A DNA stretch of 64,000 nt from Anaerolineales bacterium (GTDB lineage: Bacteria > Chloroflexota > Anaerolineae > Anaerolineales > E44-bin32): contig DASWJQ010000108.1 in assembly GCA_036397095.1 (NCBI GenBank), forward strand, positions 5,385-69,384, in the 5' to 3' direction. Position numbers and translations under genes: made by a program. The notes under the pieces were generated by a model that saw only the letters and a program-made list of their open reading frames with translations, was not told where the DNA came from and did no database searches. Positions 1 to 16,196 of this stretch are shown in pieces. How positions within the stretch are numbered: the first letter of the stretch is position 1; every line of letters starts with the position of its first letter.

Positions 1-735
1 GCTAAGGTCCTATCAGCACTGCTGGATGCCCCGCTGATCCGGCTGCAGTGCTACGAGGGCCTCGATATTCATCAGGCGGTCTACGACTGGAACTACACAC
101 GGCAGATGCTTCACATCCGCCTGACCGAGGCCCAGGGCGGTACGGCCAACGAGGCCGAGCTGTTCGGTCCCGAGTTTCTTTTGCGACGACCCTTATTGGA
201 GGCAATCGACAGTGATTCACAGATCGCCCCCATCCTGCTGATTGATGAGATCGATCGCAGCGATGCCGCCTTCGAAGCCTACTTGCTCGAGGTCCTATCG
301 GACTTTCAGATCACGATTCCGGAAATCGGGACCATCCGCGCTCGTCAGCAACCGCACGTCGTGATTACGTCCAATCGTACCCGGGAGATCCATGACGCTC
401 TCAAGCGCCGCTGTTTGTACCATTGGATTGACTATCCATCCTTCGACAAAGAGCTGGCGATCGTCGGCGCCCGCGTGCCCGAGGCGGCCGAAGCGCTCGC
501 ACGCCAGGTGACGAGCATCGTCCAGTCGCTGCGCGACCGCTCGCTTTACAAGCGGCCGGGGGTGGCCGAAACGCTAGACTGGCTCCGCGCACTGGTCGCC
601 CTAGAGATCGAACTGGTCGACCCGTCGGTACTGCAGGACACGATGGGTGCGCTGCTCAAGACCGAGGAGGATGTAGCTGCGCTGCGCGGCGAGGCGGCTG
701 TCGAGTTGCTGGAGCAGGCAAAAGTGCATGGCTGA
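1..735 (+). CDS. MoxR/CoxD-like AAA+ ATPase (5' end lies outside the window)
   Basis: Frame 1 is open from base 1 (AKVLSALLDAPLIRLQCYEG...). LLIDEIDRSD (Walker B) and VVITSNRTREIHDALKRRC are MoxR-type AAA motifs. It is followed by VWA and XdhC genes, as in coxDEF-type sets. Confidence 0.85.
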   Translation, partial: AKVLSALLDAPLIRLQCYEGLDIHQAVYDWNYTRQMLHIRLTEAQGGTANEAELFGPEFLLRRPLLEAIDSDSQIAPILLIDEIDRSDAAFEAYLLEVLSDFQITIPEIGTIRARQQPHVVITSNRTREIHDALKRRCLYHWIDYPSFDKELAIVGARVPEAAEALARQVTSIVQSLRDRSLYKRPGVAETLDWLRALVALEIELVDPSVLQDTMGALLKTEEDVAALRGEAAVELLEQAKVHG

Positions 736-1897
736 TCCAGGCCCCGGCCACGACTTGTTGGCCCGGATCGTTGGATTCGCTGGCTTCCTGCGTCTGCAAG
801 GCTTGCCAGTAGGTACGCGCCGGGTGGCGGCACTGGTCGAGGCATTGGCATTGATCGATCTGACGGATCGCCGGGCCGTTCAAACGGCCGTCGAGGCGTC
901 GCTGGTCGGGCGGTACGAGGATCTGGCCATACTACGGGCGGCCTTCGATCACTATTGGTCGGGTCAGGCAGGACTGCTGGATCCGCCCGCAGCTGAAGTA
1001 CAGCGCACACCAGCGGTCGATGAGGGCAGCCCACCGGGGTACTGGCGCCCGACCGCCGGCACAGCACCGGACGATGGTGCGGCTGCATTGGACCTGGCCT
1101 ACAGTGCCGTCGAAGTGCTGCGCACCAAGGACTTTGGCCAGATGACAGAAGTAGAGCTGGCCCAGGCCGAACGCCGGCTGGCGGGGCTGACTTTGTGGCC
1201 GGCTAGGCGCCACGGCCGGCGCTGGCAATCGGGCAGCGGGCGGCGGCTGGACTTGCGCCACAGCCTGCGCGCTGGCCTAGCCTACGGCGGCGAGTGGCTC
1301 GAGTTGCGGCGGCTTAACCCGGCGCCGACCCGGCCTCCGTTGCTGGTGCTGGCCGATATCAGCGGGTCGATGGCGCTCTACAGTCGCCTGCTGCTCGCCT
1401 TCTGCTACGGACTGGCCCGCAGGCGCCAACCACCCGTCGAGGTCTTTGTCTTCGGGACCCGGCTGAGTCGGGTTACTTCGCTCCTAAGGCGACATCCGGT
1501 CGGGGCCGCCCTCGACGGCCTCAGGCGGGAAGTGTCCGATTGGTCCGGCGGAACCCGGACCGGTGAGGCCCTGCAGCGGCTGCATATCGATTGGGGCCGG
1601 CGGATGTTGAGCCGGCGGCCGGTGGTGCTGATTCTGAGCGATGGCTGGGACCGTGGCGACCCCAGCCTGCTTGCAGCTGGTATGGCGCGCCTGGCGCGCA
1701 GCGCCGAACGTCTTATCTGGCTTAACCCGCTCGTGGGCAAGGCCGGCTACCGCCCGCTGACCCGGGGCCTGCAAGCCAGCCTGGCTCATGTGGATGATTT
1801 CCTGCCGGCTCACAATCTGGCGAGCCTGGAGTCACTGTTGGCCGTGCTCAGTCAGCCCAACCAACCATCGTCCGTTCACATAAGGCAGGCTGCATGA
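728..1897 (+). CDS. VWA-domain protein, CoxE family
   Basis: It overlaps the upstream ATPase gene by 8 nt. The C-terminal half (LLVLADISGSM...VVLILSDGWDRGD) looks like a VWA/MIDAS domain, the typical partner of a MoxR ATPase. Confidence 0.85.
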   Translation: MADPGPGHDLLARIVGFAGFLRLQGLPVGTRRVAALVEALALIDLTDRRAVQTAVEASLVGRYEDLAILRAAFDHYWSGQAGLLDPPAAEVQRTPAVDEGSPPGYWRPTAGTAPDDGAAALDLAYSAVEVLRTKDFGQMTEVELAQAERRLAGLTLWPARRHGRRWQSGSGRRLDLRHSLRAGLAYGGEWLELRRLNPAPTRPPLLVLADISGSMALYSRLLLAFCYGLARRRQPPVEVFVFGTRLSRVTSLLRRHPVGAALDGLRREVSDWSGGTRTGEALQRLHIDWGRRMLSRRPVVLILSDGWDRGDPSLLAAGMARLARSAERLIWLNPLVGKAGYRPLTRGLQASLAHVDDFLPAHNLASLESLLAVLSQPNQPSSVHIRQAA

Positions 1898-2949
1898 AAG
1901 ACATCCTTTCCGAGGTCGAGCGCTGGCGAAAATCCAATACCCCGGTGGCACTGGCGACCGTCGTCGATACCTGGGGGTCATCGCCGCGCGGGGTTGGCGC
2001 CAAGATGGCGATCACCGCCGAAGGAGGAATTGCCGGGTCGGTCAGCGGCGGCTGTGTCGAAGGGGCAGTCGTCGAGGTTGGCCAAGAGGTGCTCCTGGGG
2101 ACGGCCCCACAGTTGCTGCACTTCGGCGTTTCGGATGAGACAGCTTGGGGGGTTGGTCTGGCCTGCGGAGGGGAAATCGAGGTCTTTGTCGAGCCGCTGG
2201 CCGACGAACATTTGACTTTTGTCGAGCTGGCTATCGAGCGCGACACACCGGTTGCCAGCCTGACGATCATTCGCGGCCCGGCGGCTGCCCTTGGGGCCAA
2301 GATGAGCGCGCGTGGCAACCGGGGCGAAGAAGTGTGGGGCCAGCTTGACAGCCAGTGGGGAGAAGCAGGTCTGGCGGCGCTGCGCCGAGGAATCCGCCAG
2401 AATCGCTCGGGGCGGCAGGTGCTGGTCGAGGCCGGTGAGCAAACGATCGAGGCCTTTGTCGATGTCATCCCGCCTCAACCGACGCTGATCATGATTGGCG
2501 GGGTTCATATCTCGGTTGCCCTGGCCAAGATCGGTGCCGCGCTGGGGCAGCGGACGATTGTGGTTGACCCCCGACGGACCTTTGGCACTCGTGAGCGTTT
2601 CCCCGAGGTCGACGAGCTGCTAACGGTGTGGCCACAAGAGGCCTTCGAGCGAATTTCGATCCAAACCAGTACCGCCATTGCCGTCTTGACGCATGATCCG
2701 AAGATTGATGACCCGGCGCTAATGGCGGCGCTGCCCAGCCCCGCCTACTACGTTGGTGCCCTCGGCAGCCGGCGAACGCACGCCAAGCGGGTGCAGCGGC
2801 TGACCGAAGCCGGTATGTCACCCGAGTTGCTCGGCCGGCTGCATGCCCCGATTGGTCTGGACCTGGGCGCCATCACTCCGGAAGAAATCGCGTTGGCAGT
2901 GATGGCCGAGATCGTCCAGACCTACCGAACCGGCGATCCAGACTCCTAG
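1894..2949 (+). CDS. XdhC/CoxF-type molybdenum-cofactor insertion accessory protein
   Basis: It overlaps the upstream gene by 4 nt. It has an N-terminal XdhC_CoxI-like region (ALATVVDTWGSSPRGVGAKMAI) and a C-terminal Rossmann-like part (LIMIGGVHISVALAKIGAALG). Confidence 0.85.
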   Translation: MKDILSEVERWRKSNTPVALATVVDTWGSSPRGVGAKMAITAEGGIAGSVSGGCVEGAVVEVGQEVLLGTAPQLLHFGVSDETAWGVGLACGGEIEVFVEPLADEHLTFVELAIERDTPVASLTIIRGPAAALGAKMSARGNRGEEVWGQLDSQWGEAGLAALRRGIRQNRSGRQVLVEAGEQTIEAFVDVIPPQPTLIMIGGVHISVALAKIGAALGQRTIVVDPRRTFGTRERFPEVDELLTVWPQEAFERISIQTSTAIAVLTHDPKIDDPALMAALPSPAYYVGALGSRRTHAKRVQRLTEAGMSPELLGRLHAPIGLDLGAITPEEIALAVMAEIVQTYRTGDPDS

Positions 2950-4088
2950 ACGCCAAACAAGTGTGTGATGAGTGTGGTGGCGGCGCCGCCCACGCTCTGC
3001 ATCATTGCCACCTTGGCCCCCGCGACCTGATTGGGACCGGCCTGGCCTGTCAGCTGTAGGAAGATTTCAGCAGCCTGATACAGGCCGGTCGCGCCGATTG
3101 GATGACCGCGCGCTTTAAGTCCACCCATGGTCGTGATGGGAATACGGCCGGTGAGGCCGATCTCGCCTTCCATCGCCAAGCGCCAGCCCGAGCCACGCTC
3201 GGCAAAGCCGGCGGCTTCCAGCAACAGGCAAGCCATGATGCTGAAGGCGTCGTGCACTTCGACCAAATCGATGTCGCTGGGCTGTAAGCCTGCCTGGTCG
3301 AAGGCGAGCTGCGCCGAGCGCGCGGCGGCCGCCAGCTGAAGCGGGTCCCGGCGGTCGCGCACGCGAAAACGATCGGTGGCCACACTCGATGCCAGTACCT
3401 TGACAGCGTGCTTGGCTGGTCCGGGGGCCTTTTCGCTGGCGAGCAGCACGGCGGCGGCGCCATCGCAAATCGGCGAGCAGTCGAACAAGCGGATTGGCGG
3501 CTGAATCAGGCGCGAGGTTAGTACCTGGTCGACCGTAATCTGCTTTGTCCGAAACAGTGCGTGGGGGTTGCCGGCCGCATTGCGGTGGGCGTTCACCGAG
3601 AAGTGGGCCAACGCCTCGTCAGGCACCTGGTAGCGATCGAGATACAGGTCCATAAGCTCGGCGTTGCGCCGGATCAACGTGTCGCCATCGGGGACCTCGA
3701 ACTGGGCATCGAGAGCTTTGGCCAGTGCCGGTGTCGCCACGCCTTCACTCATCTTCTCCACGCCCAAGGCCAGCACCAGGTCGGCCGCGCCGGAGGCCAC
3801 CGCCAGTTGGCCCATCCGTAAACTGGCGGCGCCGGAGGCGGTCGCCGCCCGCACTTCGAGAGCCTCGGTAGGCGTTAGGCCGGCTTCGTCGGCGATCAGC
3901 GCTGCCACATGCTTTTGTCCTTGGAGATCATCGCTGAGCATATTGCCGACGTAGACGGCGTCGACGCGCTCGATGCCGGCGGCGGCCAGTGTTTGGCGGG
4001 CAACGAGGGCGCCCATCTGACGCAGTGTGAGTGTGCTGGCTTGCTCAACTGGAAGTTGAGCGGCGGCAATGAGATAGACGTCGCGCAT
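2946..4088 (-). CDS. thiolase-like protein (SCP-x / acetyl-CoA acetyltransferase-like family)
   Basis: Start moved to ATG 4088 (MRDVYLIAAAQLPV) with GGAGAGG upstream. It has a thiolase-type C-terminus (GGLKARGHPIGATGLYQ, SVGGAATT). Its stop overlaps the xdhC-like stop in a CTAG. Confidence 0.8.
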   Translation of the reverse strand: MRDVYLIAAAQLPVEQASTLTLRQMGALVARQTLAAAGIERVDAVYVGNMLSDDLQGQKHVAALIADEAGLTPTEALEVRAATASGAASLRMGQLAVASGAADLVLALGVEKMSEGVATPALAKALDAQFEVPDGDTLIRRNAELMDLYLDRYQVPDEALAHFSVNAHRNAAGNPHALFRTKQITVDQVLTSRLIQPPIRLFDCSPICDGAAAVLLASEKAPGPAKHAVKVLASSVATDRFRVRDRRDPLQLAAAARSAQLAFDQAGLQPSDIDLVEVHDAFSIMACLLLEAAGFAERGSGWRLAMEGEIGLTGRIPITTMGGLKARGHPIGATGLYQAAEIFLQLTGQAGPNQVAGAKVAMMQSVGGAATTLITHLFGV

Positions 4089-4104
4089 GACTAAACCTCT
4101 CCCC

Positions 4105-5307
4105 TCAGGCCACGGCACCCGAGGCGCGCCAGGCCTCGATGTCAGACTGGGCGTAACCCAGTTCGGCCAACAGCTCATCGGTGTGCTGGCCCAAGGTCGG
4201 TGGAGCCAGCCGGATAGACACCGGTGATTCCATCAAGCGGAGCGGGGAGCCGACCAATGGTAGCGTCCCCTCTGTCGGATGCACGACCTGGCTTTGCAGC
4301 CCGCGGGCTATCACCTGTGGGTCTTGAAAGACGCGGTCCATCGAGTTAATCGGCGCCGAGGCGATGCCGATCTGCTCAAACATTGCCAACCAGTCGGCCG
4401 CCGGCCGCCCGGCGAACAGCGACTGCAGCATGGCAACGACCTGCTGGCGATTGCTGACCCGGGCGGCGTTGGTGGCGAACATCTCGTCATTGGCCCACTG
4501 GGGGCGGTCGACCGCCTCACAGAAGCGGGCCCACTGTTGATCATTCCCAATGGCAAAGGCTATGTAGTCGTCGCCGGCCTGGAAGGATTGGTAGGGGACG
4601 ATATTGGGATGAGCGTTGCCCAGCCGCGGCGGCATTTCGCCGGAAACCAGGTAATTGCTGGCGACATAGCTCATAAGGGCGACCATCGAGTCCAGCAGAG
4701 AGATGTCGATGCGCTGTCCCTGGCCGGTCCGCTCGCGGGCGAATAGGCTGGCTAGGATAGCATTGGAGGCAAATATGCCGGCGGCCAGGTCGGCAATGGC
4801 AACGCCCGCCCGGATGGGCTCACCGTCGGCAGGGCCGGTGACGCTCATGAATCCACCAAGCGCCTGCACGATGAAGTCATAGCCAGGTCGGTCGGCATAT
4901 GGACCGTTGTGGCCATAGCCGGTGATGGTGCAGTAGATGACATCGGGCCTTAGTGCCTGAAGGGCCGGGTAATCCAACCCGAGCCTGGCCAGCGTGCCGG
5001 TCTTGAAATTCTCGACCACCAAGTCCGCACCCTTGATGAGCCGGCGTAGGATGGACAGGCCTACATCGGATTTGAGGTCAATGGCGATACTGCGTTTGTT
5101 GCGGTTGGCGCTCAGGTAGTAGGCCGAAAGACCACCCTCTGTGAACGGTGGCCCCCAGTGGCGGGTGTCATCGCCACGGCCGGGTGCTTCGATCTTGATG
5201 ACATCAGCGCCCAGGTCACCAAGCATCATGGTGCAGTAGGGTCCCGCGAGCACACGTGTCAGGTCGACAACGCGGATGCCATCAAGCAACGGCGAAGCCT
5301 CGGGCAT
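4105..5307 (-). CDS. family III CoA-transferase (CaiB/BaiF type)
   Basis: Start moved to ATG 5307. MPEASPLLDGIRVVDLTRVLAGPYCTMMLGDLGADVIKIE is the canonical family III N-terminus. It lies 16 nt upstream of the thiolase-like gene. Confidence 0.85.
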   Translation of the reverse strand: MPEASPLLDGIRVVDLTRVLAGPYCTMMLGDLGADVIKIEAPGRGDDTRHWGPPFTEGGLSAYYLSANRNKRSIAIDLKSDVGLSILRRLIKGADLVVENFKTGTLARLGLDYPALQALRPDVIYCTITGYGHNGPYADRPGYDFIVQALGGFMSVTGPADGEPIRAGVAIADLAAGIFASNAILASLFARERTGQGQRIDISLLDSMVALMSYVASNYLVSGEMPPRLGNAHPNIVPYQSFQAGDDYIAFAIGNDQQWARFCEAVDRPQWANDEMFATNAARVSNRQQVVAMLQSLFAGRPAADWLAMFEQIGIASAPINSMDRVFQDPQVIARGLQSQVVHPTEGTLPLVGSPLRLMESPVSIRLAPPTLGQHTDELLAELGYAQSDIEAWRASGAVA

Positions 5308-5531
5308 GGTCTCTCCTTGCAGATCCTGGGTTGGCGCACGGCGAACGGCCGTCAACTGGAATGGCCAGATTATACTGAGCCCCCATCGTGCTCGCCTGGC
5401 TGGGTTTGTCAGCCTGGCAACGTAATGCATATAATCGTGGCACTGGCTTGGCTGAAGGCAAGCCCGTCATCACCATTCGGGCTGCCTTCTTCGTTTCAAG
5501 CGGTGGACGGCGGTCAATCTGGGAGAAATGG

Positions 5532-6407
5532 ATGAAACCCGCCCCATTTGTGTATCACGCTCCCGAGAGCGTCGACCAGGCGATTGAGTTGCTGGGCGAA
5601 GTTGGCGAAGATGCCAAGCTGCTGGCCGGGGGGCAGAGCTTGGTCCCAGCGATGAACTTCCGGATTCTGCAGCCATCCGTGCTGATCGACCTTAACCGGA
5701 TTGACGCCTTGACCTACCTGGAGCCGACCGACGACGGCGGCGTGCGTATGGGCGCCATGACCCGCCAAGCGGCGGTGGAGCATTCCGAGGAGGTGGCCAA
5801 ACGGGTGCCTCTATTGCAGCTGGCGATGCCGTTAATTGCCCACCCTCAGATCCGCAACCGAGGCACAATCGGCGGCAGTCTGGCCCATGCCGATCCGGCC
5901 GCCGAGCTGCCGGTGGCGGCCGTCGCCGCCGATGCCAGCTTCGTCATCCGGCACAACGGCAGCCAGCGAACGGTGGCCGCCCCCGAGTTCTTCCAAGGGA
6001 TGTTCACGACGGATCTCGGGCCGCAGGACCTGCTGGTCGAGATCCAATGGCCCGGCACGCCGGCCCGCACTGGTTGGGCCTTCGAGGAAGTCACACGCCG
6101 ATCGGGTGACTACGCTATGGCCGGGGTTGCTGCCCGAGTGACCCTGGCACAAGATGGCGCCTGTGAACAGGCGCGTCTGGTCTACCTGAATGTTGGCGAC
6201 GGACCGACGCTGGCGCCCCAAGCCGCCGACATGCTCCGTGGCCAGAGTCGGTCGAGTGACTTGTTCGCCGAAGCCGCCGACAAGGCCGCCGCCGACGAGA
6301 TATTCCCCTTCGGCAACGTGCACGCCAGCCCGAACTACCAGCGACATCTGGCGCGGGTCCTCACGATCCGGGCGTTGGAAAACGCCTGGCAGCGGGCGGC
6401 CGGCTAA
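5532..6407 (+). CDS. Mo-hydroxylase FAD-binding medium subunit (CoxM/XdhB-like)
   Basis: Start moved to ATG 5532 (GGGAGAAA RBS). MKPAPFVYHAPESVDQAIELL...AGGQSLVPAMNFR is the FAD_binding_5 type. Confidence 0.85.
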   Translation: MKPAPFVYHAPESVDQAIELLGEVGEDAKLLAGGQSLVPAMNFRILQPSVLIDLNRIDALTYLEPTDDGGVRMGAMTRQAAVEHSEEVAKRVPLLQLAMPLIAHPQIRNRGTIGGSLAHADPAAELPVAAVAADASFVIRHNGSQRTVAAPEFFQGMFTTDLGPQDLLVEIQWPGTPARTGWAFEEVTRRSGDYAMAGVAARVTLAQDGACEQARLVYLNVGDGPTLAPQAADMLRGQSRSSDLFAEAADKAAADEIFPFGNVHASPNYQRHLARVLTIRALENAWQRAAG

Positions 6408-6452
6408 TTAAGCCAGGTCTCTTGAGCTCGAGAAGTAGCCAGGAGCAGACAG

Positions 6453-6926
6453 ATGCAGCCTTTGCATACGGTTCGACTTACGGTCAACGGCCAGGCGTAC
6501 GAGCGACAGGTGGAGCCCAGGCTGCTGCTGTCCGACTTCTTGCGCCACGAACTGGCTCTGACCGGGACCCATGTTGGCTGCGAGCACGGCGTGTGCGGCG
6601 CGTGCACCATCTTGCTCGATGGCCAGTCCGTCCGCTCGTGCTTGATGCTGGCCGTGCAGGCTGAGGGCCACGAGTTGAAAACGGTCGAAGGGCTGGCGCC
6701 TTCGCCCGACGAGCTCCATCCGCTTCAGCAGGCCTTTTGGGAGAAACACGGCTTGCAGTGCGGTTTTTGCACCGCCGGCATCATGATGACGCTGGTGCCG
6801 TTCCTCGAGACCAACGAGCGGCCCAACGAAAACCAAATCCGCGAAGCACTCTCCGGCAACATCTGCCGCTGTACTGGCTACCAACACATCATTGACGCGG
6901 TGCTTCACGCCTCTCACCCAAGTTGA
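6453..6926 (+). CDS. Mo-hydroxylase [2Fe-2S] small subunit (CoxS-like)
   Basis: Both cluster motifs are present: CEHGVCGACT and CGFCTAG...CRCTGY. Confidence 0.9.
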   Translation: MQPLHTVRLTVNGQAYERQVEPRLLLSDFLRHELALTGTHVGCEHGVCGACTILLDGQSVRSCLMLAVQAEGHELKTVEGLAPSPDELHPLQQAFWEKHGLQCGFCTAGIMMTLVPFLETNERPNENQIREALSGNICRCTGYQHIIDAVLHASHPS

Positions 6927-6929
6927 TCG

Positions 6930-8285
6930 ATGGCTATCGCTGACCACTGCGAGCGCTTGGAGTCGTTAGCCGGTGTCCTGACGGGCGGCCGGCAAACGCT
7001 GGCCGGCTACCTGGACGAACTTGAAGAACGCTTCACCAGGATCGAGCCTGAGATCCAGGCGTTTGTCGAGGAGCCGGCGCGTTTTGCACGGTTGCGTGCG
7101 GAGGCGGCGCAGCTGCTCGAGGCGTATCCGCATCCCCAGGACCGGCCAGCCTTGTTTGGGGTGCCGGTTGGGGTCAAGGATATCTTTCATGTCGAGGGCT
7201 TGGTCACTCGGGCGGGAACAGTGCCACCGCCGGAACGGCTGCAGGGTCCGGAAGCCGAAGCCATCCATCGGCTGAAACAGGCCGGTGCGCTGATTCTGGG
7301 CAAGACGGTGACGACCGAGTTTGGCTATTTTGCACCCGGGCCGACGCGCAATCCGCACAACCCGGATCACACGCCGGGCGGGTCGAGCAGTGGGTCGGCG
7401 GCAGCTGTCGGTGCTGGCCTGTGCCCGCTGGCGGTCGGCAGCCAGACAATCGGATCCATCATCAGGCCTGCCGCGTATTGCGGGGTGGTCGGTTACAAAC
7501 CGAGCTACGGTCGCATCTCGCGCGTTGGCATGATCCCGCTGGCGCCGTCCGTCGACCATACCGGCTTTCTGACGACGGACGCCGTCTCGGCCAGGCTGGC
7601 GGCCAGCCAGCTGTGCTACGACTGGTCGACCCGCCAAGGCCGGCCGCGGCCGGTGCTTGGCGTACCGGAAGGGCCATACTTGGAGTACGCCGACCAGGTA
7701 GCGGTCGAACATCTGCGACATATTATTGGGGTCCTGGAGCAGGCCGGATTCGTCACCCGGCCGGTTCCCGCCCTGGCCGACTTCGATCAGGTGCAGCGAG
7801 CTCACCACCGTTTGGTCGCGGGGGAAGCGGCCCGGGTCCACCAACGCTGGTACGCCGACTATGTCGAAACCTATCATCCTACGACCCTGGCGTTGGTGCG
7901 GGATGGGCAGGCGGTCAGCGACGATGAGCTGACGGCGGCGCGTGAGAGCTGTCTTCGGCTGCGCCATCAATTGACCCAGACGATGGATGCCTACGGGATC
8001 GACCTGTGGATCACGCCCTCCGCCACCGGGCCAGCGCCGGCCGGGCTGGCCAACACCGGTGACCCGGTGATGAATCTGCCGTGGAGCCACGCAGGATTGC
8101 CGGCCCTGGGGCTACCGGCTGGCCTGGCGGCCAACGGTCTGCCGCTGGGGGTGCAGTTGGTGGGGCGCTGGTTTGCGGATGAAGAGCTGATGTCGCAAGC
8201 CATCGTTCTGGAGCAGGCCTTGGCGCCGCTCCAGGGCCGACCGTTTACCATGATTGCCGGCGACGATGTCGCCCGTCCAGAATAG
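6930..8285 (+). CDS. amidase-signature family amidase
   Basis: It has GVPVGVKD (catalytic Lys region) and the GGSSSGSAAAV amidase signature. It starts 3 nt after the coxS-like stop. Confidence 0.85.
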   Translation: MAIADHCERLESLAGVLTGGRQTLAGYLDELEERFTRIEPEIQAFVEEPARFARLRAEAAQLLEAYPHPQDRPALFGVPVGVKDIFHVEGLVTRAGTVPPPERLQGPEAEAIHRLKQAGALILGKTVTTEFGYFAPGPTRNPHNPDHTPGGSSSGSAAAVGAGLCPLAVGSQTIGSIIRPAAYCGVVGYKPSYGRISRVGMIPLAPSVDHTGFLTTDAVSARLAASQLCYDWSTRQGRPRPVLGVPEGPYLEYADQVAVEHLRHIIGVLEQAGFVTRPVPALADFDQVQRAHHRLVAGEAARVHQRWYADYVETYHPTTLALVRDGQAVSDDELTAARESCLRLRHQLTQTMDAYGIDLWITPSATGPAPAGLANTGDPVMNLPWSHAGLPALGLPAGLAANGLPLGVQLVGRWFADEELMSQAIVLEQALAPLQGRPFTMIAGDDVARPE

Positions 8286-8310
8286 ACAGGGCCAAGCGAG
8301 AGAAGGCTGC

Positions 8311-9564
8311 ATGATGGATACCCGGCAGGCTAACCAGACGGCGTTCGAGCGCATGATGGCCAGCCAGCCGCGCCTGGTTAGGGTTGCCCCGGCGGGCGAG
8401 GTCGTTCCCGGCCTGACCGGCGACTTAATCTTGCACGCAGGCCCGCCCATTGCCTGGGACCAAATGAGCGGGCCTCTGCGCGGTGCCATCATCGGTGCGC
8501 TGCTTCTTGAAGGGCGCGCCCAGGTCGAGGACGAGGCCGCCGAGCTGGCGGCCAGCGGAGACATCCGCTTCGCACCCTGCCACCATCACGATGCGGTCGG
8601 GCCGATGGCGGGGGTTCTTTCGCCTTCGATGGCGGTCTACGTGGTCGAAGATTCAGCCGGCGGCCAGCTGACATTCTCCAGCTTGAATGAAGGCTATGGC
8701 AAGGTGCTGCGCTATGGCGCGTTTGCCCCCGAGGTCATCGAGAAGCTGCGCTGGATGAACCGGTCCATGGCGCCCGCTTTAAGCGCCGCGTTGGAGCAGT
8801 TAGGGGAGGTTGACTTGCGGGCCCTGATCGCCGAAGCGTTGCACATGGGCGACGAGGGTCACAATCGCAACAAGGCGGGTTCGCTTCTCTTCCTGCGCAC
8901 GCTGGCACCGGTCCTGGCGCAGGTCGTCGCCGACGCTGACGAAGGCAACCGCATCTTGGCCTTCCTCGGGGGAAACGCCCTCAGCGTGCTCAACCCGGTG
9001 ATGGCGGCCTGCAAAGCCATGACTCTGGCCGCCCATGGTGTGGAGGGCAGCAGCCTGGTGACTGTGATGGCCCGCAATGGCACCGACTTCGGCATCCGCG
9101 TGAGCGGGCTGGGCGACCGCTGGTTCGTGGCCCCCTGCGAGATGCCGGCTGGCAAGTACTTCGAGGGCTACAGCCAGAACGATGCCAACCCCGATATCGG
9201 GGACAGCACGATCACCGAGACGGCCGGCATCGGTGCCTTTGCCATGGCGGCGGCCCCGGCAATTGTCGAATTCATCAGCGGCACGCCCGAACTGACGATG
9301 GAATCAACGCTGGAGATGTATCAGATTACGCAGGGTGAGCACGAGCACTTCAACATACCGGCGCTCGGCTTCCGCGGCACCCCGACCGCCATCGATGCCT
9401 TCAAGGTGGTTGAGACCGGCATCCTGCCCCGCATCAACACCGGCATCGCCCACCGGGAGGCTGGGGTGGGACAAATCGGGGCGGGGCTCGTTCGACCGCC
9501 GATGGCAGTGTTTCAGGAGGCGGCGGAGGCGTTGCGCACCCAAGGTGCGCAGCACCATGGGTAA
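8311..9564 (+). CDS. DUF1116 protein, YlbE/AllG-like (oxamate carbamoyltransferase subunit G family)
   Basis: Start moved to ATG 8311. There are long collinear blocks with E. coli YlbE as I remember it: LHAGPP..W..M.GP..GA, PCHH..AVGPM.G, FGIRVSGLG.RWF.AP, NPD.GDS.ITET.GIG, INTGIAH.EAG.GQIGAG. Confidence 0.85.
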   Translation: MMDTRQANQTAFERMMASQPRLVRVAPAGEVVPGLTGDLILHAGPPIAWDQMSGPLRGAIIGALLLEGRAQVEDEAAELAASGDIRFAPCHHHDAVGPMAGVLSPSMAVYVVEDSAGGQLTFSSLNEGYGKVLRYGAFAPEVIEKLRWMNRSMAPALSAALEQLGEVDLRALIAEALHMGDEGHNRNKAGSLLFLRTLAPVLAQVVADADEGNRILAFLGGNALSVLNPVMAACKAMTLAAHGVEGSSLVTVMARNGTDFGIRVSGLGDRWFVAPCEMPAGKYFEGYSQNDANPDIGDSTITETAGIGAFAMAAAPAIVEFISGTPELTMESTLEMYQITQGEHEHFNIPALGFRGTPTAIDAFKVVETGILPRINTGIAHREAGVGQIGAGLVRPPMAVFQEAAEALRTQGAQHHG

Positions 9565-10220
9565 CACGCGATACGGAAAACGGGAGCTCGATAAGGAGGA
9601 ACTGTCGGACACGAAGTTCGTGTATGTGGATTACCGTCACCTCAAATGTGATTGTTGTCAGTTGATGTAGGCCTGGATAGTAGGGGGAGCCAGTGGCCAA
9701 GTATGGATTGGAGCAGCTAGAAGTCTGGCGAGCAAGCATGGAGTTGGCTAGAGACGTTTGCTTAAGGCTTGTTCCGGCATTGCCGGAGGAAGAAAAGTAC
9801 GCGCTGGCATCGCAGCTTCGTCGCGCTGCCCAGAGCATTCCGGCCAACATCGCTGAGGCTTATGGCAGATTTCATTATGCAGATGCCGCTCGCTGCTGCT
9901 ACATTGCCCGTGGATCCCTCGAAGAAATGTGGAGCCATGTGCTCTTAGGCAGGGAGATTGGATACTGGCGAGATTTCTCATTCGAGGAATTGCGCAAGAG
10001 ATATCTGAGAGTCCAACAGATGCTAAATGGCTACATTGGCTATCTCAAGAGGAGTCGCAGAACTTGAGGCCACTGGCAGAGTGCGGGCACGCCATCGCAA
10101 AGTTGGTTGAGACAAGGTTCGCTACTTTCGTGATTCAGGGGACTGGATCAGTCTTGAAAGCAGCCGAGCGTGCCCCGGTGCTGATTTTCCGTATCCCGTG
10201 TTTCGTATCCCGTATTACCT
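9561..10220 (+). repeat. inverted-repeat-flanked, lower-GC cassette carrying the four-helix-bundle gene (IVS-like element)
   Basis: The left arm (9561-9587, GGTAACACGCGATACGGAAAACGGGAG) is near-complementary to the right arm (10193-10220, CCCGTGTTTCGTATCCCGTATTACC). That gives about 26 bp with 3-4 mismatches or wobbles. The interior is visibly less GC-rich than the flanks. Confidence 0.6.
9693..10067 (+). CDS. four-helix-bundle protein (family formerly called 23S rRNA intervening-sequence protein)
   Basis: GTG start with GGGGGAG 5 nt upstream. LEVWRASMELARDVCLRL...ALASQLRRAAQSIPANIAEAYGRF...ARGSLEEM is the hallmark of this family. Confidence 0.85.
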   Translation: MAKYGLEQLEVWRASMELARDVCLRLVPALPEEEKYALASQLRRAAQSIPANIAEAYGRFHYADAARCCYIARGSLEEMWSHVLLGREIGYWRDFSFEELRKRYLRVQQMLNGYIGYLKRSRRT

Positions 10221-10256
10221 GAACCAGTTCAGATCTCAAACCAAAGGACTCATCCG

Positions 10257-11045
10257 ATGAAAATCTACGACCTCTCCCAACCCCTCAACCAGGACGCCCC
10301 CTTCTGGCCGTTCTATCCGCCGTTTGAGGTCAAGTACTTCAAGCGCAAGGCCGAGCATGGTGTCAATGCACAATACATCCAGACCTCCAATCACATGGGG
10401 ACGCATCTTGATGCGCCGCGGCACTTCATGACCGCTGGCAAGACGATCGACCAAATCCCGCTGGAGTGGGTCTACGGGCCCGGTGTCATCGTCGACTTAA
10501 GCGATCTCATGGATGAACTGGAAGTGATCACGGTCGCCATGATTGAAGAGCGGGCTGAGGTGCGCCAGGGCGATATTCTCTTCCTGCACACCGGCTGGCA
10601 CCGCCATGCTCAGTTTGGCGACCAGCCAGACGAAGAGAAGTACATTCACCGCCATCCGGGGCCTCACTTCGAAATCGTCGACTGGCTCATTGCCAAGCAG
10701 ATCCACCTGTGGGGGGTCGACATGGTATCGACCGATCACCCAATGAACCTGCCAATCGGACGCTTCCTTGGCAAGGGTGGTCTCGAACATTGGCAGAAGG
10801 TCCGCCAGCAGTGCATCGACAAGTTTGGCGAAGACCAGCTTGACAAGCTGTTTCCCGATTCGGCCTACCAATTGACGCACAATGCTTTGTTCCCGCACGA
10901 CTGTATCCATGTCGAAAATTTGGGCGGGCAGATTGGGGCTCCCGAACTGCAGAACCGCCGGCTTACGCTGGGCGCGTTCCCCTGGCTGTTTCAAGGGGGA
11001 GAGGCCGCGTTCTGCCGGGCCGTCGCTTTCGTCGAAGAGGACTGA
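10257..11045 (+). CDS. cyclase-family metal hydrolase (kynurenine formamidase / isatin hydrolase-like)
   Basis: The HxGTHxDxPxH motif is present as NHMGTHLDAPRH, within a cyclase-type fold length of 262 aa. Confidence 0.85.
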   Translation: MKIYDLSQPLNQDAPFWPFYPPFEVKYFKRKAEHGVNAQYIQTSNHMGTHLDAPRHFMTAGKTIDQIPLEWVYGPGVIVDLSDLMDELEVITVAMIEERAEVRQGDILFLHTGWHRHAQFGDQPDEEKYIHRHPGPHFEIVDWLIAKQIHLWGVDMVSTDHPMNLPIGRFLGKGGLEHWQKVRQQCIDKFGEDQLDKLFPDSAYQLTHNALFPHDCIHVENLGGQIGAPELQNRRLTLGAFPWLFQGGEAAFCRAVAFVEED

Positions 11046-11047
11046 GC

Positions 11048-13405
11048 ATGACGACACGCACCTTCGGTCAACGCATCAAGCGGAACGAAGACCCCCGGCT
11101 GCTGACCGGCCGAGCACTCTTCGTCGACGACGTCAACCCGGCAGGTTTGACGCACGCCGCCTTCGTGCGCAGCCCCTATGCCCACGCCCGCATCAAGTCG
11201 ATCGACACCTCGACGGCGCGCCAATTAGCAGGCGTGGTCGCCATCTACACGGCCGACGATCTTGGCGACTACTGGCGTAAGGGACCGCTCAACGTGTCGC
11301 CGCCCCCGATCGAGGGGCTCGAGTTCCACGAACGGACCCAGCCCATCCTGGCGCGTGACAAAGTGCGCCATGCTGGGGAAGCGCTGGCGGTAGTCATCGC
11401 CGAGAGTCGCTACCTGGCGGAAGACGCCGCCCACCAGATTGTCGTCGACTACGAGCCGCTGCCAGTCGTGGTCGAGCTTGAAGCCGCGCTCGAACCGGAG
11501 GCGGCGCTGATCCATGACGACCTCGAATCGAACCGGGCGGCCCACGTCATCCAGCGGAAGGGCGACTTCGAGGCGGCCAAGGCCAAAGCCGACCTGGTGC
11601 TGACCCGGCGTCTCGACTACGACCGCGGGGTGGCGGCGGCCATGGAAAACCGCGGCATCGTCGCCGACTGGGACCGTCTCAACCAGCGGCTGACAGTCTG
11701 GGACACAACCCAGGCACCCATCCCGATCCGCAACGGGCTGGCCGGCATGCTCGGGCTGTCGGAGGACCAGGTGCGGGTGGTGGCGCCTTTTATCGGCGGT
11801 GGGTTTGGTCCCAAAATTATGATGTTCTATCCGGAAGAAATGCTGATCCCGTGGATTGCGCTGCAGCTGCAGCGGCCCGTCAAGTGGATCGAAGATCGCG
11901 CCGAGAACTTCGTGGCCACCAGCCACGAGCGGGGTCAAATCCATGATGTCGAGTTCGCATTCACCAGGGACGGCCGACTGCTGGCTGTCAAGGATGTCTT
12001 TCTGCACGACAGCGGTGCCTACGATCCGTACGGCTTGACCATTCCCATCAACAGCCAGTGCACGTTGCTCGGCGCCTACGACGTGCCCAACTACTATTCG
12101 GAATTCACGGCGGTCTTCACCAACAAGACGATCGTCACGCCCTATCGAGGCGCCGGCCGCCAGCATGGTGTGTTTGTCATGGAGCGGATGCTCGACCTGG
12201 CGGCGCGCGAACTGGACCTCGATCCGACCGAAATCCGCCGCCTGAACTTCATTCCTTCGGACGCCTATCCCTACGACAACCAGATCATTTACCAGGACTT
12301 TGCCCCCCTGGTTTACGACAGCGGTAACCATGAGCCGGTGCTGGACAAGACGATGGAGCTCATTGGCTACCGACAGTTCCGCGATGAGATCCAGCCGGCG
12401 GCCCGCAAGCAGGGGAGAAAGTTGGGTCTTGGGTTGGTGTACTACGTGGAGGGCACCGGCATTGGCCCCTACGAAGGGGCGCGCGTGCAGATCCAACCGA
12501 GCGGCAAGGTCAGCGTCGTCACCGGCGTCGGCACCCAGGGGCAGGGCCATTTCACAAGCTTCGCCCAGGTGGTGTCCGACCAATTGGGCGTGCCCGTCGA
12601 CCAGATCACGGTCGTGACCGGTGACACCGACCAGTTCCATTGGGGAACCGGAACCTTCGCCAGCCGCGGGGCCGTGGTGGCCGGTAATGCCATCCATGCC
12701 GCTGCCAAGGAAGTGCGGCGCAAGGTGTTGGCGATGGCCAGCGAAAAACTGGAAGCGGCCGTCGAAGACCTGGAGCTGGACGGCGGATCGGTACAGGTGA
12801 AAGGCGTGCCCAGCTCGGCTATTCCGCTCGGCCAACTGGCTGCCGAAGCCAACCCGCTGCGAGGGGCGGTCAAACCCGGCACCGAGCCCGGTTTGGAGGC
12901 CACCGACTATTTTGGCCCGGAACGTGGCGCCACGGCCTACGGGGCCCATGCCATGATCGTCGAAGTCGACCAGCAGACGATGCAGGTCCACATCGATAAG
13001 TACGTTGTGGTGCACGATTGCGGCCGGGTGATCAACCCGCTAATCCTCGACGGCCAAATACACGGCGGGGTGGCGCAGGGGCTGGGCAATGCTTTCTTCG
13101 AGGAGTTGATCTATGACGAAAACGGCCAGCTGCTCAACGGCTCCTTCATGGATTACTTGCTGCCGACGGCGTCGGATGTCCCGCGCATGATCGTCGACCA
13201 TCTCGAGACCCCGTCGCCGCTGAATCCACTGGGGGTCAAAGGGGCTGGAGAAGCCGGTGCCATCCCGGTGGCGGCGCTGTTCGCACAAGCAGTCGAGGAT
13301 GCATTGGACCTGCCCGATCTCGAGCTACTCGAGATACCCCTGAGCCCAAGCCGTCTGTGGGAGCGGGTCGAGGCCGAACGACTGGCCGCGGCCGCCGAGG
13401 CCTAA
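11048..13405 (+). CDS. Mo-hydroxylase molybdopterin-binding large subunit (CoxL-like, form-II type)
   Basis: 785 aa. The N-terminus RIKRNEDPRLLTGRALFVDD is typical. The active-site loop reads TPYRGAGRQHG (AYRGAGR type), not the VAYRCSFR of true CO dehydrogenases. Confidence 0.9.
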   Translation: MTTRTFGQRIKRNEDPRLLTGRALFVDDVNPAGLTHAAFVRSPYAHARIKSIDTSTARQLAGVVAIYTADDLGDYWRKGPLNVSPPPIEGLEFHERTQPILARDKVRHAGEALAVVIAESRYLAEDAAHQIVVDYEPLPVVVELEAALEPEAALIHDDLESNRAAHVIQRKGDFEAAKAKADLVLTRRLDYDRGVAAAMENRGIVADWDRLNQRLTVWDTTQAPIPIRNGLAGMLGLSEDQVRVVAPFIGGGFGPKIMMFYPEEMLIPWIALQLQRPVKWIEDRAENFVATSHERGQIHDVEFAFTRDGRLLAVKDVFLHDSGAYDPYGLTIPINSQCTLLGAYDVPNYYSEFTAVFTNKTIVTPYRGAGRQHGVFVMERMLDLAARELDLDPTEIRRLNFIPSDAYPYDNQIIYQDFAPLVYDSGNHEPVLDKTMELIGYRQFRDEIQPAARKQGRKLGLGLVYYVEGTGIGPYEGARVQIQPSGKVSVVTGVGTQGQGHFTSFAQVVSDQLGVPVDQITVVTGDTDQFHWGTGTFASRGAVVAGNAIHAAAKEVRRKVLAMASEKLEAAVEDLELDGGSVQVKGVPSSAIPLGQLAAEANPLRGAVKPGTEPGLEATDYFGPERGATAYGAHAMIVEVDQQTMQVHIDKYVVVHDCGRVINPLILDGQIHGGVAQGLGNAFFEELIYDENGQLLNGSFMDYLLPTASDVPRMIVDHLETPSPLNPLGVKGAGEAGAIPVAALFAQAVEDALDLPDLELLEIPLSPSRLWERVEAERLAAAAEA

Positions 13406-14281
13406 TTGCGGATCCGAGCACTGCGCCTGACTCCGGTTGCCCGAGCCTGGCTCCAGGCCGCCGGCCCCGCCAGGCCGCTGCACATCTTTTCCCAGGTCTG
13501 CAACCTGATAGACGACGGCGGCCGGGTCCTATCGCTGCAAACGGCCCGGCTGGCCGACGGTCCACTATCCCTGACCGTGCCGGCGCAGGTCGGGGGCGGG
13601 CAGGGATTGGGGCATTGGATCCATGATCAGACTTCCATTGTTCGATTAGAAGATAGGCTCACAGTCGGCAAATTGACGATCGATTGGGCTGGCGCCGAAA
13701 ACTGGGATCCGACCCCTGATTGGCAGCGGTTGCGAGCCGACCAGGGTTTTACGAGCAGGCTGCCGGCGCTGCGCCGGTTGCTGGCGGCTGGGGCGCCACC
13801 TGGGGGATTGGCTGGTCTGCTAGACGAGGGAGAGTTGGCCGCGGACTCACTGGCGGCCCAGCTGTTGGCTACTGCCGGCCCGCTGGCCGCCGCTTTGCAG
13901 TCAGCGTTGCGATCGGGTAATCGGAGCCGCCTGCAGCCGGCGGCGGCCGGGCTGGCCGGCTTGGGCGGCGGTCTGACTCCATCCGGCGACGACTATCTGG
14001 TTGGGGTGATGCATGCCTTGTGGATCCAGCGGCCGCCGGCCGAGTCGACCGAGCTGTCGGAGCTGCTGGTGAGCGCGGCCGTGCCACGTACCACCCCCCT
14101 ATCGGCGGCCTGGCTGCAGGCAGCCGCCGACGGGCAGGCCTCGCGGCTGTGGCATGATTTGCTGGAGGCGCTGTTGTCGGCCGAAGGGGGAGCGATTGAA
14201 GCACCGGCCCGGGCCCTGATGGCAGTTGGTCATACCTCGGGTGCCGATGCGCTGGCCGGCTTCCTGCAAGCATTCGAGTAG
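13406..14281 (+). CDS. DUF2877 protein, YlbF/AllH-like
   Basis: TTG start directly after the large-subunit stop. GLGGGLTPSGDDYLVGVMHALW and the C-terminal VGHTSGADALAGF are the DUF2877 hallmarks. Confidence 0.75.
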   Translation: MRIRALRLTPVARAWLQAAGPARPLHIFSQVCNLIDDGGRVLSLQTARLADGPLSLTVPAQVGGGQGLGHWIHDQTSIVRLEDRLTVGKLTIDWAGAENWDPTPDWQRLRADQGFTSRLPALRRLLAAGAPPGGLAGLLDEGELAADSLAAQLLATAGPLAAALQSALRSGNRSRLQPAAAGLAGLGGGLTPSGDDYLVGVMHALWIQRPPAESTELSELLVSAAVPRTTPLSAAWLQAAADGQASRLWHDLLEALLSAEGGAIEAPARALMAVGHTSGADALAGFLQAFE

Positions 14282-14303
14282 CTGCCCATATCATCGGGGG
14301 ATC

Positions 14304-14337
14304 AAAAAAAAGCGGCGCAGCTTTGCTGCGCCGCTTT
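14304..14337. terminator. bidirectional intrinsic terminator between convergent genes
   Basis: There is a perfect 11-bp stem (AAGCGGCGCAG / CTGCGCCGCTT) with a 5-nt loop. An A7 tract precedes it, which is the U-tract for the minus-strand permease transcript. A short T-run follows. Confidence 0.75.
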
Positions 14338-14360
14338 CGGGAACCCCGACTGCGAAGTGG

Positions 14361-15773
14361 TTAGTCGCCCATTCCCATTTCGGTCGTCCGGCCAGTCCCA
14401 ACAGCATGGGATTCGACGCTGGCAACCGCGGGCGGCTTGAAGACCAGGAAGATCAGGTTGAGCAGGATGCCCGCTACGGCGCCGGTAGCGATCGCCGGCC
14501 AGCCGAAGGGGAACAGCCCCTGCAGCAACGGGATCGGCAGGAAGCCACCGGCGTAGCCGATGTGGCCGCCCACGCCGATCACCATGATGACAGCACCGAT
14601 GGCCAGCTGCTTCGGATCGAACAGGTTGACCTTCTCCGACATGATCAGGGCAATGCCTTGCATGCCGATCACGCCGAACAGGTAGATAGCCAGTCCGCCC
14701 GAAACCGCCAGCGGGATGCTGTTGACCACCGCCACCAGCTGGCCGCTGAAGGCCAGGATCATGGCGATGATGCCGCCGCCAATCAGGGCGGGGCCGGAGT
14801 AGTTGCGGGTGATCACCATCAGCGAGTTGTTCTCGCCGTAGTTGGTGCCGGCAACACCACCGATCAAGCCGTTGGTCATGTCGCCCAGACCGTCCAGTAC
14901 CAGGTTGAGGCCGATGAACTCACTGAGCTTCTGCTTCGGCCGCCCCATCTGATCGGCCAGGTTGTCGACGTACAGGCTGATCTGATACAGGTGGGCTGTT
15001 GATTCAGGGATGGTGGCGATGGCCATGGCGGCGATGCCGAAGATGGCGGTCGCAGCCAGTTCACTGCTGAAGTTCGGGAAGGTGAAGTGCGGCACCGTGA
15101 TCAGGCTGGCCGCACCCACGCCACTGAAATCGACCAGGCCGAAGGGGATCGCCACCAGGTAGCCGACGACGGCACCCAACAGCACTGGGATCATCCCGAT
15201 GAAGCCGCGGCCCTGCAGGTAGACCGAGAAGATGATGGTCACCAGCAAGGTGATCAAGGCGACGCCCCAGTGAGAGCTGGACATGTCGAGCGCAGCGAAG
15301 CCGAGGGCGAACCCGATGACCGCGGCCACCGAGCCCGTCACAATTGGCGGGAGGACCACGTCGATCGATTTCTTGCCTCCGGAGAAGCGAATGATCAAGC
15401 CGATGGCGATGTTGACCAAGCCGGTGACGATAATGCCGGCCTGGGCCGCGCCGATCAGCTCATCGCTGGCCGGGACACCGAACTGAGCGCCCGTGACCGC
15501 CAATGTGGCGGCGATGTAGCTGAAGCTCGAGCCATAGTACAGCGGGATGAACGTTCCGATCCCGAGTCGTGAGCCGAGCAGGGCCACCAGTGTGGCCAGA
15601 CCGGAGGCAAACAGCACAGTGCTGACGTGGAACCCGACGAGCAAGGCCACCAACACGGTGGCGGGGAACATGGTCAGCACGTGCTGAAGTCCGAGGAGCA
15701 CCAACTGTCCGATTGGGGGTGTGTCATTGGGCAAGTAGCCCATGACCTTGACCTTTGGGGACTCCATGGTCAT
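14361..15773 (-). CDS. NCS2-family nucleobase (uracil/xanthine-type) permease
   Basis: Start moved to ATG 15773 (MTMESPKVKV, GAGGAG RBS). It is polytopic and Gly-rich, with a typical NCS2 N-terminus (PIGQLVLLGLQHVLTMFPATV). Confidence 0.85.
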   Translation of the reverse strand: MTMESPKVKVMGYLPNDTPPIGQLVLLGLQHVLTMFPATVLVALLVGFHVSTVLFASGLATLVALLGSRLGIGTFIPLYYGSSFSYIAATLAVTGAQFGVPASDELIGAAQAGIIVTGLVNIAIGLIIRFSGGKKSIDVVLPPIVTGSVAAVIGFALGFAALDMSSSHWGVALITLLVTIIFSVYLQGRGFIGMIPVLLGAVVGYLVAIPFGLVDFSGVGAASLITVPHFTFPNFSSELAATAIFGIAAMAIATIPESTAHLYQISLYVDNLADQMGRPKQKLSEFIGLNLVLDGLGDMTNGLIGGVAGTNYGENNSLMVITRNYSGPALIGGGIIAMILAFSGQLVAVVNSIPLAVSGGLAIYLFGVIGMQGIALIMSEKVNLFDPKQLAIGAVIMVIGVGGHIGYAGGFLPIPLLQGLFPFGWPAIATGAVAGILLNLIFLVFKPPAVASVESHAVGTGRTTEMGMGD

Positions 15774-16151: not shown

Positions 16152-16180
16152 TTGACGGCCCCTAAGCGCTACGTTACAAT
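16152..16180 (+). promoter_or_regulatory. sigma70-type promoter for the tRNA-Ala pair
   Basis: TTGACG (16152-16157), a 17-nt spacer, then TACAAT (16175-16180). It lies about 17 nt upstream of the first tRNA. Confidence 0.6.
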
Positions 16181-16196
16181 GCGCTCATCCCTTCGG

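Follow-up and report, generated by a model that had tools for sequence, protein, structure and literature searches.

In Rhodococcus erythropolis and related bacteria, pyrimidines are degraded oxidatively by uracil/thymine dehydrogenase (EC 1.17.99.4), barbiturase and ureidomalonase, as the pathway is summarized from Soong, Ogawa and Shimizu (2001) in PMC4051656. In the papers searched, neither a gene or sequence for EC 1.17.99.4 nor a gene-level report of a uracil dehydrogenase was found. A second described system is the oxamic transcarbamylase of E. coli, for whose activity AllF, AllG and AllH are required together (PMC11326118). AllFGH was experimentally shown to be an acylurea phosphorylase, which cleaves the N-acylurea oxalurate with phosphate (PMC11326118) and works with the carbamate kinase AllK (PMC11326118, PMC9843812). 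In a metagenomic study, allFGHK is mentioned next to genes for triuret (PMC12625717). Here, a gene cluster is described in which homologues of AllG and AllH are combined with a molybdenum (Mo) hydroxylase and a nucleobase permease. It occupies positions 1 to 15,773 of a 64,000-nt stretch of contig DASWJQ010000108.1 (positions 5,385 to 69,384; referred to here as the window) from an Anaerolineales bacterium of the Chloroflexota (GCA_036397095.1; 195 contigs, 94.5% complete). The cluster is real and widely conserved, and no description of it was found in the papers searched. It very probably represents one unit for the catabolism of an N-heterocycle, and the evidence tips slightly towards a uracil-type pyrimidine as the substrate.

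The core of the cluster lies on the plus strand. It runs from the flavin adenine dinucleotide (FAD)-binding medium subunit of CoxM/XdhB type (M; 5532-6407; Pfam FAD_binding_5 and CO_deh_flav_C) to an AllH/DUF2877 homologue (13406-14281; Pfam AllH 1.2e-24, 87 bits). Between these two genes are located the 2Fe-2S small subunit (S; 6453-6926; Pfam Fer2 and Fer2_2), a malonamidase-E2-like amidase-signature enzyme (6930-8285; Pfam Amidase 3e-67), an AllG/DUF1116 homologue (8311-9564; Pfam AllG 4.7e-93, 311 bits), a four-helix-bundle cassette (9563-10202), a cyclase-family metal amidohydrolase with the kynurenine formamidase/isatin hydrolase fold (10257-11045; Pfam Cyclase 2.9e-40) and the molybdopterin large subunit with a form-II loop (L; 11048-13405; assigned by three Pfam domains, motifs and tree). 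The M subunit, read from the ATG at 5532, has a length of 291 aa, the same as in the relatives. The maximal open reading frames of several genes were shortened once the start codons had been refined from the gene junctions.

From the FAD subunit to AllH, the intergenic gaps are between 0 and 45 bp in length, with the exception of the four-helix-bundle cassette. Of all promoter-like sites in the first 17 kb, the best one (TTGTCA-18-TATAAT; 5406-5435, plus strand; 11 of 12 positions, by consensus match only) lies in the 224-bp intergenic region upstream, from which a second gene pair diverges. Downstream, a 14-bp GC-rich, terminator-like hairpin with its T-run on the minus strand (14308-14338) is placed between AllH and the convergent gene for an NCS2 nucleobase:cation symporter of the UraA (uracil) type (14361-15773, minus strand, ATG at 15773; Pfam Xan_ur_permease; top NCBIfam match uracil permease). 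The layout is operon-like, framed by one promoter-like site and one terminator hairpin. All genes listed in a first-pass annotation of this DNA were recovered with Pfam and NCBIfam in the order and on the strands given there.

For the analysis of gene order in related genomes, more than 575 loci with relatives of the large subunit were obtained from a scan of one genome per species. The best 80 were examined, and upstream order was counted in the 47 of these that extend 8 kb or more upstream of the large subunit. The AllG and/or the cyclase gene was found upstream of the large subunit in 40 of the 47 loci. Approximately 35 loci share the order FAD subunit, 2Fe-2S subunit, amidase, FdrA, AllG, (four-helix bundle), cyclase, large subunit. 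Recurrent downstream genes are AllH, an NmrA-like reductase, the convergent NCS2 permease and a coenzyme A (CoA)-transferase; acyl-CoA synthetase, CoxG and XdhC genes are further recurrent neighbours. A cytosine-deaminase-like amidohydrolase gene is inserted after the large subunit in nine loci, and an NMT1/THI5-type ATP-binding cassette (ABC) importer is present at 6-7 loci. The loci span Chloroflexota, Acidobacteriota, one myxobacterium (Myxococcota) and one Zixibacteria genome, and the closest relatives of the organism carry Anaerolineae or Chloroflexia labels. The cluster was also seen in a metagenome-assembled genome named Litorilinea aerophila, and cultured strains of that species may carry it. 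A neighbourhood comparison had been proposed in the first-pass annotation; in it, both the gene set and the split order recur. Since the order is shared across phyla, the placement of the large subunit apart from its partners is ancient and has been maintained. The split itself had been recognized before, but the intervening genes had been called unrelated, whereas they are co-conserved and belong to the pathway.

All domains of a three-subunit Mo hydroxylase (hammerhead, two MoCo-binding, FAD and two 2Fe-2S domains) were matched with Pfam E-values of 1e-29 to 1e-88. The large subunit contains TPYRGAGR at residues 364-371, which agrees with the form-II active-site loop PYRGAGR reported earlier, IGGGFGPK from residue 249 and KGAGEAG with Glu735. 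The loop [TS]PYRGAGR is found in 70 of 76 clade members. In a comparison with all solved structures, the large subunit matched CoxL of Mycobacterium (544 bits, 39.6% identity), quinoline oxidoreductase QorL (529 bits, 38.0%), CoxL of Afipia (463 bits, 36.1%) and ketone dehydrogenase KdhL (452 bits, 37.0%). With these enzymes (QorL 1T3Q, KdhL 7DQX, CoxL 1N5W/8UEM) it shares the L-M-S subunit set, the domain architecture, the catalytic glutamate and a YRGAGR-type loop. In contrast to them, the window protein is 36-40% identical to each, forms its own well-supported clade and is encoded by an L gene that lies apart from those of M and S, with four genes of the pathway in between. In a tree of 87 sequences, built by maximum likelihood, it falls within a clade of 74 proteins with at least 70% identity (Shimodaira-Hasegawa-like approximate likelihood ratio test, SH-aLRT, 99), and all four characterized enzymes (the two CoxL, QorL and KdhL) are placed outside this clade. 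The phylogeny thus sets the large subunit apart from every characterized enzyme compared, so the novelty claimed for it was not refuted.

The sister group (support 98) consists of three Chloroflexota proteins (50-52% identity), one protein of Nonomuraea gerenzanensis (48%) and one from a Rhodococcus plasmid (43%). Among plasmid relatives, none exceeded 49% and none is characterized. Both actinobacteria of the sister group, Nonomuraea and Rhodococcus, are cultured. The Nonomuraea locus (L130, 2050-14340) contains allH-allF-allG divergent from a PucR gene, two NCS2 permeases and M-S-L. On plasmid pRZP2 of Rhodococcus sp. ZPP (L131), genes for an amidase, CoA-transferase, XdhC, PucR, NCS2 permease, M-S-L, CoxG, hydantoinase B and NmrA were identified; its large subunit was matched in two pieces, possibly due to a frameshift.

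Clues to the substrate were obtained from the permease, the amidase and the genomic context. The closest solved relatives of the permease are UraA only, and the uracil-binding residues Glu241, His245 and Glu290 (UraA numbering) align as identical. Xanthine-type NCS2 permeases carry Asp and Gln at the positions of this Glu-His-Glu pattern. The motif YGEN was found in 15 of 19 cluster permeases. For the amidase, the closest relative among all solved amidase-signature enzymes is malonamidase E2 of Bradyrhizobium japonicum (1OCK; 6e-50). Its GSIIRPA aligns with GGSVIRPA of malonamidase E2, the shared pattern being Ser-x-x-Arg-Pro-Ala; Arg158 of malonamidase E2 binds the substrate carboxylate. This resemblance is taken as a clue to a malonyl product. 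The motif QTIGSxxRPA is present in 31 of 36 amidase orthologues, and an amidase beside an AtzD-family gene in another cluster has an ordinary GGSIRIPA motif. Although it is the best solved relative, malonamidase E2 is distant (174 bits), and the window amidase differs from it by an N-terminal extension of 70 residues and by its genomic context. Through their cytosine-deaminase-like genes, nine of the related clusters would supply uracil from cytosine, and the NMT1/THI5-type importer of 6-7 loci likewise counts for a pyrimidine over a purine. The substrate had been regarded as unreadable from the sequence; the permease, amidase and context clues narrow it, pointing to uracil or thymine over purine.

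The cyclase-family protein contains the metal motif HxGTHxDxPxH in the form HMGTHLDAPRH. With a score of only 55 bits against kynurenine formamidase, it does not qualify as an orthologue of that enzyme. Its gene adjoins AllG in the window and also in a second type of module described below.

Between the amidase and AllG, the relatives contain a gene of about 560 residues that scores over the cut-off of the NCBIfam model 'acyl-CoA synthetase FdrA' and is the AllF subunit of oxamic transcarbamylase. It is located within the operon in 35 of 40 relatives; the L007 genome is an example with a complete operon. In the window, neither AllF/FdrA nor a remnant of it was found between amidase and AllG, which are joined by 25 bp. 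The same-genus genome G002 has the identical FdrA-less order with the four-helix-bundle cassette present, and each of three genomes of the genus has one FdrA, at another locus. The genus has lost AllF from the operon. In the window genome, the sole FdrA is located at C57:30937-32490; there are two AllG genes (in the window and on contig C57), one AllH (in the window only) and two cyclase genes. The oxamate-carbamoyltransferase-related subunits named in the first-pass annotation are present as far as AllG and AllH are concerned, but the absence of AllF, encoded only elsewhere, had passed unnoticed. New for this window are the AllF-less operon, the encoding of the one AllF and the one AllH at separate loci, and the divergence of AllG.

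Compared with E. coli AllFGH, the window AllG and AllH score over the Pfam cut-offs and the FdrA of the relatives over the NCBIfam cut-off, and the same chemistry, N-acylurea phosphorolysis, would be required. In contrast to E. coli allFGHK, the window genes are interleaved with hydroxylase, hydrolase and amidase genes, AllF is missing from the operon, the carbamate kinase is encoded at another locus and the proposed substrate is ureidomalonate rather than oxalurate. Since AllF was lost from the operon, the step would need the AllF of C57, or it would be weakened or bypassed.

The second ureide-type locus of the genome (C57:23600-35700; L084 1621-13642) starts with a nucleoside-type ABC transporter, an MmdA-like carboxyltransferase (749 bits against the methylmalonyl-CoA decarboxylase alpha model), a small membrane peptide and a biotin carrier (EAMKM). 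These are followed by OAD_beta, FdrA, AllG, a cyclase gene and a gene for a 242-residue protein without a family, with gaps of 22-51 bp. A Mo large subunit with 36% identity is encoded 10 kb upstream of this locus. The same AllF-AllG-cyclase module, together with the MmdA-like carboxyltransferase, the biotin carrier and OAD_beta, was also found in the genomes G008 and G001; in G008 it is preceded by another Mo hydroxylase and a cytosine-deaminase-like gene. A malonyl or methylmalonyl end product would agree with the place of this paralogous module, next to a Na+-pumping (methyl)malonyl-CoA decarboxylase.

The C57 FdrA ends about 55 residues before the full-length form, and the last approximately 45 residues of FdrA/AllF are fused to the N-terminus of the adjacent AllG (L084 10529-10700, corresponding to C57:32529-32700). 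A profile of the AllF tail matched the second-locus AllG of five genomes with E-values of 1e-12 to 1e-16 (window AllG: 0.7), and the fusion is located at the same place in G001, G002, G004 and G008. It looks like a shift of the gene boundary, and the move of the tail onto AllG argues that the AllF tail contacts AllG. The 242-residue gene after the second cyclase was considered as a hidden AllH and rejected (hhalign probability 0.2%). Only one AllH was found even in genomes that have both types of module; the two modules may therefore share it, or the second one may use a replacement.

For the fate of the nitrogen, 31 related genomes of the same family and order were searched. Urease alpha was found in none of them (urea carboxylase was not searched); as positive controls, 4 of 14 control genomes matched above the cut-off. 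Carbamate kinase was detected in 28 of the 31 genomes at E <= 1e-20, in 24 of them, including the window genome, above the curated cut-off. Both results favour phosphorolysis over a release of urea. Its gene is not adjacent to AllG/AllH and is located on contig C129 beside two OTCase-family genes. The corresponding region (C129:1260-13500; L113) contains the carbamate kinase, an amidohydrolase, an adenine deaminase, a GntR regulator, the two OTCase-family carbamoyltransferases and a Bmp-type nucleoside ABC transporter, and is probably a fermentation-type route for purine or another ureide.

From the observed gene content, layout, conservation, protein families and diagnostic residues, we infer the substrate and every chemical step of the following pathway. 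A uracil-type base would be imported by the UraA-like permease and hydroxylated with water at C6 by the three-subunit Mo hydroxylase, resulting in barbiturate (or 5-methylbarbiturate). The hydroxylase would be matured by CoxD, CoxE and XdhC, with CoxG assisting. Ring opening by the cyclase-fold metal hydrolase would yield ureidomalonate, an N-acylurea with one CH2 more than oxalurate, and an AllF-AllG-AllH-type enzyme would cleave this compound with phosphate to malonamate and carbamoyl phosphate. Carbamoyl phosphate could be converted to ATP, CO2 and NH3 by the carbamate kinase from the other locus, and malonamate to malonate and NH3 by the malonamidase-like amidase. Finally, the divergent pair of CoA-transferase and thiolase-like protein would channel malonate into CoA metabolism.

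As far as the Rhodococcus erythropolis pathway is given in the cited summary, the proposed barbiturate, ureidomalonate and malonate as end product would be the same, and an amidase-signature enzyme occurs in both. In contrast to that summary, the window genome contains no AtzD/barbiturase-family gene and has a cyclase-fold hydrolase instead, and in the proposed route the ureido group would be released as carbamoyl phosphate rather than as urea. No urease is present. The general outline given before, with uptake, Mo hydroxylation and hydrolytic opening of a purine/pyrimidine-like ring in an uncharacterized pathway, fits all findings. The reading of the genes as one cluster that degrades a pyrimidine of the uracil type (uracil, thymine or both) by the proposed route has, in our estimation, an even chance of being correct, and the full step-by-step scheme may reach or fall just short of that. 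More tentatively, and with the balance leaning against it, the [TS]PYRGAGR clade might be the uracil/thymine dehydrogenase of an undescribed oxidative pyrimidine pathway that is independent of urease, yields ATP and draws its carbamoyltransferase subunits from two loci.

A number of observations speak against the uracil pathway. The permease and amidase residues used as clues also occur in related, non-identical specificities, and the NmrA-like reductase, common in the relatives, has no role in the scheme. The missing operon copy of AllF, the shortened C57 FdrA as the sole AllF of the genome and the divergence of the window AllG count likewise. Others come from the sister clade and the AtzD/barbiturase family (PF09663), which had no match in the window genome and matched 9 of 401 genomes of the phylum. 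In one Chloroflexota family (L128, 4742-13809; L126; L129), a cyclase-M-S-L operon with a 50-52% identical large subunit faces a convergent operon that encodes an NCS1 permease, an amidase and an AtzD-family hydrolase, which links the sister-clade large subunit to a family that opens six-membered cyclic amides. These AtzD-family proteins scored 396 bits to the Frankia 'ring-opening amidohydrolase' 5HY0, 188-294 bits to cyanuric acid hydrolases and 212 bits to the Rhodococcus barbiturase 5HWE. Their assignment as true barbiturases was rejected, as they are nearer to 5HY0 and under the NCBI cutoff for cyanuric acid hydrolase, and the evidence from them is equivocal. The Frankia enzyme is reportedly inactive on cyanuric acid and barbiturate, and we know of no substrate for it; the L128-type context may point to the substrate of this orphan class. 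The cyclase is retained there despite an AtzD-family ring opener alongside, so a role as barbiturate hydrolase is not secure. On the Rhodococcus plasmid, hydantoinase/oxoprolinase-type genes replace the cyclase and AllFGH beside the 43%-identical hydroxylase.

The same architecture could serve another cyclic ureide or N-heterocycle, such as a 5-substituted barbiturate, a hydantoin/parabanate-like ring or the orphan AtzD-class substrate, in which case the clues from the permease and the amidase would indicate no more than a small amide product bearing a carboxylate. The sister-clade hydrolase nearest 5HY0, the plasmid gene set and the unexplained reductase all favour this. We nevertheless hold it to be unlikely, if the most serious alternative, against the UraA-type binding residues, the cytosine-deaminase-like neighbours, the malonamidase-like arginine and the (methyl)malonyl-CoA decarboxylase beside the paralogous module. 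A purine route, with a xanthine/urate-type dehydrogenase, a true oxamate carbamoyltransferase acting on oxalurate and an amidase acting on oxamate, is improbable. Oxalurate is the only demonstrated AllFGH substrate (PMC11326118), the genome has an adenine deaminase, catabolic carbamoyltransferases and a carbamate kinase, and PucR-type regulators adjoin the related actinobacterial loci. However, no uricase, allantoinase, allantoicase or ureidoglycolate dehydrogenase was found in the cluster or its relatives, the large subunit is far under the xanthine dehydrogenase model scores, the Glu-His-Glu pattern of the permease is of the uracil type and the amidase resembles malonamidase.

Decay of the carbamoyl-transfer step in this genus, with AllG and AllH as relics after the loss of AllF and an operon that is hydrolytic or partial, is also rather unlikely, though it would account for the absence of AllF from the operon in the window and in G002, with AllF at another locus in all three genomes of the genus. 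Of the 234 columns with at least 90% conservation among the orthologues, the window AllG keeps 208, the lowest number of 36 (median 98.7%). In G002, 218 of 234 columns are kept, and three changes, including a conserved His to Gly, are common to both. The large subunit, cyclase and amidase are conserved at a normal level. Against decay, neither AllG nor AllH is truncated or interrupted in either genome, AllH is the sole genomic copy and likewise normally conserved, and there is no urease to use the urea of a hydrolytic route. A 'TGA inside AllG' in G002, considered as a sign of pseudogenization, was rejected, since it is the ordinary stop codon. An aerobic carbon monoxide (CO) dehydrogenase, as close relatives are labelled, is the least probable of all and has next to no likelihood. 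Several relatives bear this name in public records, and the window protein scored 938.5 bits with NF040766 ('aerobic CO dehydrogenase large subunit'), near the cut-off of 950; with TIGR02416 it scored 574 against a cut-off of 991. A 50%-identical relative (L128 6967-9303) reached 1144 bits with NF040766. This exception model scores proteins with the PYRGAGR loop near or above its cut-off, and relatives are therefore named CO dehydrogenase. The name is probably wrong for these relatives, because neither they nor the window protein, with its TPYRGAGR, have the AYxCSFR loop with the Cu-binding cysteine. In addition, true CoxL proteins are only 36-40% identical and outside the clade, and the operon is interleaved with amide hydrolases and accompanied by a nucleobase permease.

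Upstream of the hydroxylase operon, three genes on the plus strand belong to the maturation functions assumed in the uracil pathway. The coxD-like gene for a MoxR-type AAA ATPase (1-735; NCBIfam MadB-family AAA ATPase 2e-59) is present in the window with its 3' part; the 5' portion lies upstream on the contig, with a CoxG gene ahead of it (contig 4752-5195). It is followed by a coxE-like gene for a VWA protein of Mo-enzyme maturation (728-1897; Pfam VWA_CoxE 3.9e-55) and a gene for an XdhC/CoxI-type molybdenum cofactor insertion chaperone (1894-2949; Pfam XdhC_CoxI and XdhC_C), which is placed upstream of M in many related loci. On the minus strand, divergent from the hydroxylase operon, a family III CoA-transferase of the dicarboxylate type is encoded (4105-5307, start at 5307; Pfam CoA_transf_3 2.9e-138; top NCBIfam match succinate-glutarate CoA-transferase), which is linked to the cluster in 18 loci. 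Its dicarboxylate type agrees with a malonyl product. The second gene of this pair (2946-4088; Pfam Thiolase_N/Thiolase_C_1) encodes a thiolase-like protein of the SCP-x/archaeal type, starts with the ATG at 4088 behind the ribosome binding site GAGGGGAGAGG and is linked to the cluster in 11 loci.

The four-helix-bundle cassette between AllG and the cyclase gene (plus strand) contains an open reading frame at 9693-10067 that belongs to the 23S rRNA IVP family (Pfam 23S_rRNA_IVP 4e-31, TIGR02436) and is flanked by 18-nt inverted repeats at 9563-9580 and 10185-10202. The same-genus genome G002 has the gene at the same site, as do about 12 of the related loci, among them L104 (1740-2241), L039 (9068-9977), L068 (8488-9036) and L013 (3723-4243). 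The cassette is always flanked by inverted repeats, which vary by locus and are composed of short repeated words.

For the identification of regulatory elements, positions 1-17000 were searched with Rfam, in which no known riboswitch or RNA leader was found for the operon or the permease; only two transfer RNA (tRNA) genes and the T-box of leuS were matched. The two tRNA genes and the T-box leader before leuS (16197-16357 and 16742-16854) are located directly past the cluster, the T-box being scored under the gathering threshold. A scan of six related loci with Rfam revealed no relevant leader. The search for an operator common to both promoter regions resulted in only one 10-mer, which is part of a tRNA promoter-like site.

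The AllF-less operon represents a natural experiment on the subunits needed by the acylurea phosphorylase. If the uracil pathway is correct, AllF and a tail-bearing AllG beside the decarboxylase and AllH with a second AllG in the hydroxylase operon would together form one carbamoyltransferase, and the uracil and thymine branches would share parts. It would add two new activities, a cyclase-fold barbiturate hydrolase and an AllFGH-type phosphorylase specific for ureidomalonate, which would be a second substrate for the newly discovered AllFGH enzyme. Furthermore, genes would be provided for EC 1.17.99.4, an activity known since the 1950s, and with them an additional route of pyrimidine breakdown. 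The label 'aerobic CO dehydrogenase', which serves to infer the oxidation of atmospheric CO, would be corrected on hundreds of genes of the Chloroflexota and Acidobacteriota.

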